DNA from: Escherichia coli
GTDB taxonomy: Bacteria > Pseudomonadota > Gammaproteobacteria > Enterobacterales > Enterobacteriaceae
Reading direction: 5' to 3' (one strand)
Assembly (NCBI RefSeq): GCF_048403405.1
Contig: NZ_CP183129.1
Length of the DNA: 64,000 nucleotides
Shown: positions 30,528-30,912 of the stretch, piece by piece
Layout: every line of letters begins with the position of its first letter
Position numbering within the stretch: position 1 is the first letter of the stretch
Translations under genes and position numbers: made by a program
Notes under the pieces: model-generated
Told to the model about the DNA's origin: nothing
What the model saw: the letters and a program-made list of their open reading frames with translations, nothing else
Database searches by the model: none

Positions 30528-30912
30528 CGCGCGCGTACTTGTCGCAAAATATCAGGCAAAGGCCAGATTCAGAACGTCGTGATAATCACCAGCACAACAT
30601 GAGATGTCATGTAACGCGATTGATCACACCAGATACATGTGATTGGTGTACCCGCATAAAACATCGTCATAGCGCGTCCTGTGCGCATATACGCCGATAA
30701 TCAACACATCACCACCACTCTGTCTTATGTAGAGAACAGTTTTATGGTGCTCCCCGCCATCGTGTGCGTACTGGTCGGACGCAGTTGCAAAATTTTTTGC
30801 AACTGATACCCCTCGCGCGCGTACTGGTCACGAAATTGGTGTTTTGCTGTGGCAGTGATATCAGAAAAATCTTCCTGTTTCACATAAAGAGGATATGCGC
30901 GTACTGTAACGG
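30528..30912. promoter_or_regulatory. Operator-like region: four GCGTACTGGTC-type direct repeats flanking a perfect 11-bp-arm palindrome
   Basis: Repeats at ~30531-30545, 30765-30776, 30818-30829, 30897-30912; palindrome CAGTTGCAAAA-TT-TTTTGCAACTG at 30782-30805; lies between divergent/unidirectional small genes. Confidence 0.45.

Follow-up and report, generated by a model that had tools for sequence, protein, structure and literature searches.

A same-orientation array of terS-like repeats as a candidate packaging signal of EcCIMP1-like islands in Escherichia coli

We analyzed a non-coding module of 419 bp (positions 30519-30937) in a 64,000-nucleotide stretch of the Escherichia coli contig NZ_CP183129.1, here called the window, where it forms part of a phage-inducible chromosomal island (PICI) of the EcCIMP1 family. 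On balance, we consider it probable that this core module is a same-orientation array of pac-like sites derived from terS, the gene for the small terminase (TerS), and that it serves as the packaging signal of the island, read by the TerS of a helper phage. The case is built from comparative sequence analysis. As we envisage it, the small terminase of a P22-like helper would recognize replicated island DNA via the units of the array, and this recognition would start headful packaging. If the direction is as in P22, packaging would proceed from the array to PerC and the attachment site, which is leftward in window coordinates. The array contains two types of unit, termed A and B, both of which TerS may bind; the A segment is proposed to be, or to overlap, the pac site of Sf6-type phages. 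Units of two terS families and of several alleles would widen the usable helper range. It is also possible, as a variant of the same mechanism, that the array acts as a sink for TerS and so interferes with the helper.

Gene content and synteny show the element to be an EcCIMP1-like island, in that the integrase, AlpA, TOPRIM/DUF927 primase, PerC, and P22-like ejection genes are found in conserved order between core genes. The element measures approximately 18 kb and is integrated between yicG/dinD and yicC, whereas EcCIMP1 in strain MP1 sits at a tRNA-Thr site. Its gene order comprises an integrase, an AlpA-like HTH protein, an AntA/B-type protein, DUF4222, an 'ash family' protein, a TOPRIM-DUF927 primase, P22-like gp14, gp7, gp20, and gp16, and PerC. 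EcCIMP1 was excised and transduced only when the P22-like phage Kapi1 was present, and the study that described it leaves the packaging mechanism open, without mention of this intergenic region (PMC11773190). No TerS-like protein or domain was detected among the island proteins screened; EcCIMP1, which bears the same core and is transduced by Kapi1 (PMC11773190), thus appears to be a helper-packaged element without a TerS of its own.

Of 5,426 complete E. coli genomes, 544 carry the core, for the most part at 95-99% identity, and it also occurs in Salmonella and in EcCIMP1 of strain MP1 (L128 11216-11647; 95.8% identity). No RefSeq-annotated gene lies within the repeat interval or the core. 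Both sequence features that the first-pass annotation had described are present in 30531-30910: four copies of a GCGTACT(G)GTC-type motif, all on the + strand, and a perfect palindrome with two 11-nt arms around a 2-nt centre. The repeats recur below both as GCGTACT-type copies and, under the labels R0 to R4, as A units.

30519-30937, no strand: non-coding core module, 419 bp, common to EcCIMP1-like islands and located between two slots of swapped genes
28920-28940, + strand: R0, an extra degenerate A unit beyond the PerC gene, oriented as R1-R4 and outside the interval first described
30531-30543, + strand: repeat 1 as a GCGTACT-type copy, GCGCGTACTTGTC
30532-30550, + strand: R1, A unit, CGCGTACTTGTCGCAAAAT, antisense of the Kapi1/Sf6-type terS stretch coding FRDKYA
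30764-30776, + strand: repeat 2, equal to R2, a truncated A unit, GTGCGTACTGGTC, the left end of a 53-bp unit deleted in some relatives
30782-30805, no strand: palindrome, CAGTTGCAAAA-TT-TTTTGCAACTG (whole CAGTTGCAAAATTTTTTGCAACTG)
30817-30829, + strand: repeat 3 as a GCGTACT-type copy, GCGCGTACTGGTC
30818-30836, + strand: R3, A unit, CGCGTACTGGTCACGAAAT, the first 18 nt of which equal the L176-type terS allele common in E. coli
30853-30874, - strand: B unit, the second repeat type, GAAGATTTTTCTGATATCACTG, between R3 and R4, a degenerate homologue of the P22-type pac site
30897-30909, + strand: repeat 4, equal to R4, a truncated A unit, GCGCGTACTGTAA, counterpart of the GCGCGTACTGTTGC copy in Pluralibacter/Leclercia arrays

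The clustering of these repeats is far above chance. GCGTACT occurs 12 times in the 64-kb window when both strands are counted, and four of these occurrences fall inside the 385 bp of the repeat interval. The 19-mer consensus CGCGTACTKGTCRCRAAAT, derived from R1 and R3 alone, has three window matches at no more than three mismatches against an expectation of 0.10, and no shuffled sequence reached three. EcCIMP1 holds a better-preserved counterpart of R0, adjoining PerC (L128 9475).

The first lead to the nature of the A unit came from the few short matches between the core and Kapi1, among which R1 aligned to the antisense strand of terS. When compared with the whole 39.4-kb Kapi1 genome, the consensus CGCGTACTKGTCRCRAAAT has a single match, with one mismatch, at 18874-18892, inside terS (0.06 expected at three mismatches or fewer). 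R1 itself shares 14 identical bases with Kapi1 terS 18874-18892 (- strand), followed by one additional phage base and then AAAA, and a perfect 12-mer of the A unit is unique in Kapi1. BLAST comparisons of individual repeats, as short queries, with all phages were uninformative given the size of that database. The matched segment codes F-R-D-K-Y-A (codons 58-63) of a protein that is identical in Kapi1 and Sf6 (Sf6 gp1; PDB 3HEF, 4DYQ). Moreover, terS alleles differ at exactly those positions where the island repeats differ:

terS allele of Kapi1/Sf6: CGCGTACTTGTCGCGAAAA
terS allele of L158 type (E. coli, Salmonella): CGCGTACTTGTCTCTAAAT
terS allele of L176 type (very common in E. coli): CGCGTACTGGTCACGAAAC
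terS allele of Enterobacter type: CGCGTACTGGTCTCTAAAC
Island repeat 1: CGCGTACTTGTCGC-AAAAT, Kapi1 type
Island repeat 3 in this window: CGCGTACTGGTCACGAAAT, equal to the L176 allele at 18/18 nt
Island repeat 3 in MP1, 83972, and L004: CGCGTACTTGTCTC(G/A)AAAT, L158 type

The linked positions of R3 switch together between the L176-type and L158-type states, and when the core was compared with terS it was found to hold no portion of that gene other than the A segment. Across E. coli genomes, the core and a Kapi1-like terS co-occurred in 103 cases against 65 expected, an odds ratio of 1.9 that is uncorrected for phylogeny. The terS genes of the Sf6 family are themselves mosaic (L104-L127 compared with Kapi1 L047 18704-19132), the block that codes the DNA-binding domain (nt ~1-177) being swapped while the remainder is near-identical; the junction of this allele swap falls inside the A motif.

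The B unit leads to a different terS family. The pac site of P22 is reportedly a 22-bp sequence located inside gene 3, the terS of that phage. As annotated in NC_002371, it spans gene 3 nt 268-289, GAAGATTTATCTGAAGTCGTTA, and is followed by CGCGAGC. In blastn comparisons of P22 gene 3 with the island arrays, the matches have their start precisely at the first base of pac, nt 268, and reach E-values of 5e-4 (two Pluralibacter loci) and 0.004 (Leclercia). The B unit of the window is identical to P22 pac at 16/22 positions and occupies the place equivalent to that of the B units in the Pluralibacter and Leclercia arrays (L136 and L137). Elsewhere in the island there is a second pac-like locus, in the orientation opposite to that of the core array:

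42345-42451, + strand: P22-type terS fragment, 107 nt, 86.9% identical to P22 gene 3 nt 268-374 (E 1e-32), starting at the first base of pac

This fragment has 117 phage matches, and among those listed all are in terS or packaging genes; it is present in EcCIMP1 as well (L128 24071-24177). Its orientation is antisense to the annotated 'ash family' open reading frame (ORF), in whose N-terminal third it is embedded. The annotated 'ash family protein' (355 aa, 41532-42599, - strand) has PHROG matches that begin near residue 106, while the stretch of its first ~100 codons is shared with the terS fragment and a degenerate A unit, and its N-terminal extension is probably spurious. In Pluralibacter (L136 105-1046), the corresponding stretch upstream of the Ash domain is inverted relative to that domain.

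Both unit types are retained in other genera. Islands of Pluralibacter gergoviae and Leclercia, with gp7 84-87% identical, have an intergenic counterpart of the core that lies downstream of gp16, on the 5' side of a small cargo gene that the opposite strand encodes. A blastn comparison of the core with these loci gave no alignment except one 26-nt match spanning R3, in Leclercia L137. Their arrays nevertheless contain 2-4 A units (GAGTTTCGYGACMAGTACGCGCG, written in terS sense) alternating with 3-6 B units (GAAGRTTTTTNNGGNGTCACTAYGCGAG), and one Leclercia A copy matches Kapi1 terS across 23 contiguous nt. In E. coli, Salmonella, Pluralibacter, and Leclercia, the A and B units occupy the same position and are co-oriented relative to gp7-gp16. 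The presence of the repeats in related elements favours a function. Furthermore, because the A units copy helper terS and the B units are homologous to P22 pac, the likely binder is the TerS of a helper, and the likely function is packaging rather than transcription. Taken together, an island that lacks a recognizable TerS, that is mobilized by headful phages, and that keeps co-oriented pac/terS segments across genera while the spacers diverge would be best explained as one that carries its own packaging signal.

Several observations weigh against this proposal. The 16/22 identity between the window B unit and P22 pac is not significant alone, as approximately three matches of at least 15/22 arise per shuffled 64 kb. 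P22 gene 3 and Kapi1 terS show no significant similarity, and the view of A as the Sf6 counterpart of pac therefore rests on analogy. The pac site of Sf6 is said to lie inside terS, in the part that codes the DNA-binding domain. The A segment (terS nt ~168-195, codons 56-65) is at or just beyond the 3' edge of that part, and for this reason it may not be the pac site. The A motif is present once in the phage as opposed to four or five times in the island, R2 and R4 retain just 9-11 nt of the A unit, and in the E. coli/Salmonella core, conservation of the repeats does not exceed that of the spacers. Synonymous-site conservation of the A motif among terS alleles was uninformative, since the sample was too closely related. 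A second A/B cluster is located 5' of the ash domain, with an orientation that depends on lineage. Finally, the transduction frequency of EcCIMP1 is low, and the titres of Kapi1 were not lowered by it (PMC11773190).

The lack of extra conservation of the repeats over the spacers within E. coli/Salmonella also fits an origin of the core as neutral debris, that is, recombination leftovers (captured pac-proximal ends, or decayed terS) that persist as a homology anchor for cargo swapping. Consistent with such an origin, the 107-nt terS fragment begins exactly at pac, as a captured end of packaged DNA would, and the repeats stand at rearrangement junctions, namely the left core boundary at R1, the deletion between R2 and R3, and a deletion joint at R4. 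Translation of the repeats on the - strand yields terS-like peptides (AKHQFRDQYAR) whose differences are mostly at third codon positions, which suggests descent from coding DNA. Random sampling of terS, however, would cover all 429 nt of the gene, whereas the five copies per island keep only the same ~19 nt. In addition, the units in Pluralibacter and Leclercia are near-perfect and co-oriented amid DNA that cannot be aligned, and R3 alternates between two states, each identical to an extant terS allele. For these reasons we regard neutral debris as an unlikely account of the core.

The arms of the palindrome are invariant in all relatives that retain it, while its centre varies among TT, AA (equivalent to a flip), CT, and a 1-nt deletion, with the TT/AA flip occurring between lineages. 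It is absent from L004-type variants and from the Pluralibacter/Leclercia arrays. A 53-bp deletion exactly between R2 and R3 (window 30764-30829; L004 ~6001-6407) removes it; this deletion is recurrent in E. coli, and its differing junction sequences (YAHDGG and YARDGG protein variants) suggest more than one event. The interval between R2 and R3 looks like a slippage hotspot. Being lineage-specific, recurrently deleted, and missing from Pluralibacter and Leclercia, the palindrome stands outside the conserved design; it could be a bend or host-factor site, or merely a slippage-prone hairpin.

These properties bear on the proposal of the first-pass annotation that the interval is a repressor or activator binding region, possibly a switch bound by AlpA, an antirepressor, or an RHH protein. 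A cluster of protein-recognition sites does fit the data, as the motif survives in the otherwise unalignable DNA of distant relatives, while the operator switch is unsupported. In its general form, the proposal would have the repeats and palindrome act as operators for the RHH protein, PerC, AlpA, or Ash, controlling the cargo gene or neighbouring operons. The position of the core lends itself to this idea: in many relatives the conserved sequence reaches the ribosome-binding site and start codon of the following cargo gene, the Leclercia/Pluralibacter array is likewise 5' of a cargo gene, and the second A/B cluster lies on the 5' side of the domain of Ash, a predicted regulator. Dimeric regulators typically bind sites of the kind seen in this perfect 24-bp palindrome, and an RHH-like protein is encoded upstream in this island. 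On the other hand, a scan with the sigma-70 consensus, which would miss activator-dependent promoters, found no more promoter-like sites than expected from shuffles, both at this locus and in L136 and L137, and none on the + strand at the repeats. In Salmonella and MP1, the neighbouring gene is convergent and does not lie downstream. This island and several relatives have the RHH-like gene, and PerC is always near the core; in 83972 and MP1, however, the annotation shows no RHH-like gene upstream of it. The palindrome, whose centre spacing varies by 1 nt, is lineage-specific and has been deleted recurrently. An operator would also leave the identity with terS alleles and P22 pac unexplained, whereas repeats that copy a terS segment and resemble pac point to helper TerS rather than to the regulators named above. 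We thus consider transcriptional control improbable, somewhat more so than neutral debris.

All copies in the core, here and in Pluralibacter/Leclercia, are antisense relative to the co-directional flanking genes, an arrangement that could instead reflect an antisense RNA. A + strand transcript of the core would pair with terS mRNA (codons 57-63, in several alleles) and modulate TerS synthesis. P22 makes an antisense RNA, sar, at the equivalent immI position downstream of gene 16. The contiguous complementarity of 14-18 nt and the tracking of synonymous terS variants, as base-pairing would select, are in keeping with this idea. A structured RNA was considered and set aside, as the core has no Rfam match at E-values up to 1 and its folding is weak (z-scores of -2.1 on the + strand and -1.2 on the - strand). 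Nor is there a promoter or terminator to delimit a small RNA. The B units match pac, which is a DNA site and would not obviously serve as a target for RNA; in Pluralibacter, the cluster near ash is sense-oriented; and Kapi1 titres were not reduced by EcCIMP1. Antisense control is accordingly, in our judgement, the least probable of these alternatives and very unlikely.

Returning to the packaging signal, a bolder form of this proposal is that the array is polyvalent, carrying pac mimics of two unrelated TerS families and of several alleles, serving many P22-like helpers, and being updated by recombination with helper terS. We advance this extension only tentatively and hold it to be possible but rather doubtful; if true, the A unit would mark the Sf6-type pac at nucleotide resolution. 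A more radical version would treat the transcribed array as a multi-allele antisense library against helper terS mRNA. The packaging proposal itself would have broader implications, as the module is carried by approximately 10% of complete E. coli genomes. A defined cis signal of ~400 bp would explain how a terminase-less satellite is mobilized by headful phages, and matching terS alleles to repeat variants would predict its helper phages. The core would also give a short candidate for the Sf6-type pac site and would serve as a portable tag that makes plasmids or cargo transducible by P22-like phages.

Satellites that carry helper packaging signals are already known; what is unusual here is the multi-copy arrangement and the combination of units from two terS families. 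As is proposed for the present island, E. coli PICIs of the EcCICFT073 type (PMC6739421; reviewed in PMC9026076) are Gram-negative satellites in which a copy of the helper packaging signal, there a cos site, leads the helper terminase to package the element. They differ in using lambda-like cos helpers, with a satellite-encoded protein, Rpp, retargeting TerS (Fillol-Salom et al. 2019, PMC6739421), whereas EcCIMP1-like islands have pac-type headful helpers, no detected Rpp or TerS homologue, and a two-type, multi-copy array. With P22 pac, the island shares homologous B units whose alignments start at the first base of the site, a 107-nt fragment that also starts there, and packaging by P22-like headful machinery. 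P22, in contrast, has one copy in a functional terS, while the island has several degenerate, non-coding copies and no terS, the window copy matching at 16/22 positions. The likeness to the Sf6-type pac consists of A repeats near-identical to a unique segment of Sf6/Kapi1 terS, at the allele-swap junction of the DNA-binding-domain module; the island differs in having 4-5 copies in several allelic forms, and the A segment falls at the 3' limit of the part that codes this domain.

Short direct repeats spread over 100-400 bp and proposed to be read by an oligomeric TerS ring are found in lambda cosB (R1-R3) and in SPP1 pacL/pacR (PMC4856287, PMC4737164), although those repeats are within the phages themselves and have a single specificity. 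For SPP1 and the Bacillus phage SF6, specific in vitro binding of TerS to the repeats could not be shown. The immI region of P22 (Mnt/Arc operators, sar) resembles the core in its position after the ejection-protein genes, by an RHH-type gene and an opposite-strand membrane or exclusion gene, and in this respect it recalls the operator interpretation. Homology to immI/sieA was rejected, as the core has no similarity to those regions of phages N7 and Kapi1; the island also lacks an arc/ant pair, and its repeats are terS-derived rather than Mnt/Arc operators.

The core is set between regions of exchangeable content. Its left boundary is at 30519, and its right boundary is at 30937, 30948, 31026, or 31086 depending on the relative compared. 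Gene content varies on either side; only 28 of 612 records cover at least 80% of a 1.2-kb query, and the core remains ~95-96% identical even where fourfold sites of the adjoining gp20 show 20-60% divergence. The first description of the flanking genes holds, with a 66-aa protein with a hydrophobic C-terminus (30299-30499) upstream and a small membrane protein downstream. The latter gene most likely starts at GTG 31023:

31009-31025, + strand: ribosome-binding site, AAGGGAGG, with the likely GTG start codon of the variable membrane-protein gene downstream

This ribosome-binding site and GTG (31023) mark the end of the shared sequence in many relatives, and beyond them a different cargo gene follows. 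The cargo slots of the window are 29764-30219, 30299-30499, and 31023-31373, all on the + strand, and their gene content differs between islands. Across islands, the slot genes encode an RHH-like 151-aa protein, 66/73-aa proteins (phrog_6324), Abi family proteins, small membrane proteins, a lipoprotein, and a 232-aa protein, and they have the appearance of exchangeable genes with accessory or exclusion roles. EcCIMP1 reportedly confers additional superinfection immunity against Kapi1. After the gp16-like gene of the island, a hairpin terminator (31371-31386) has a 16-nt exact match in Kapi1 (L047 32615-32630), just past the gp16 homologue of that phage, which suggests that the ends of the two ejection-protein operons are homologous.

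Other functions of the core were evaluated and set aside. A vaguely toxin-like ORF of 92-105 aa on the - strand is open in some variants only, its frame being broken in most by 1-nt and 53-bp indels in different relatives. Changes in the core (11 synonymous versus 23 non-synonymous; codon-position counts of 12/7/13) have a near-neutral look. This ORF has no Pfam match at E-values up to 10, and among 5.8 billion proteins it matches only near-identical ORF fragments of E. coli and Salmonella. The 'hypothetical protein' calls made in the core in some genomes appear spurious and would warrant correction. A relic of an ash-like gene on the + strand was likewise rejected, with similarities only at E ~1; the apparent link to ash arises because the N-terminus of the ash ORF is antisense to the P22-type terS fragment. 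The sole DUF4222 match (P0033) is a deletion fusion of the island DUF4222 gene with R4 and not homology. In some islands (metagenome contigs L040 8001-8285, L041, and L042), a big internal deletion fuses the DUF4222 gene to R4 through a CGCGAC-type microhomology and takes out everything from ash through the cargo gene.

A role of the core as replication origin was also rejected, because iterons typical of an origin directly follow the TOPRIM-DUF927 primase gene. These iterons, GTGTTGGTTCAA, are found at 36675-36789 as three direct and three inverted copies that flank AT-rich DNA (GC content ~0.35-0.375), and it is plausible that the island origin is located there. The repeat motif of the core is unrelated to these iterons, and GC there is ~0.47.

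Two further observations concern the surroundings of the island. The window is 100% identical to NZ_OZ040716.1, the closest RefSeq genome. In that genome (L001 13978-16394), the place of dinD between yicG and PerC is taken by ISEc23, an element of the IS66 family, so that the strain behind the window is related but not identical. The tRNA-Sec gene (selC; 10098-10192, - strand), an integration hotspot, is in the window but outside the island and is unrelated to the repeats.

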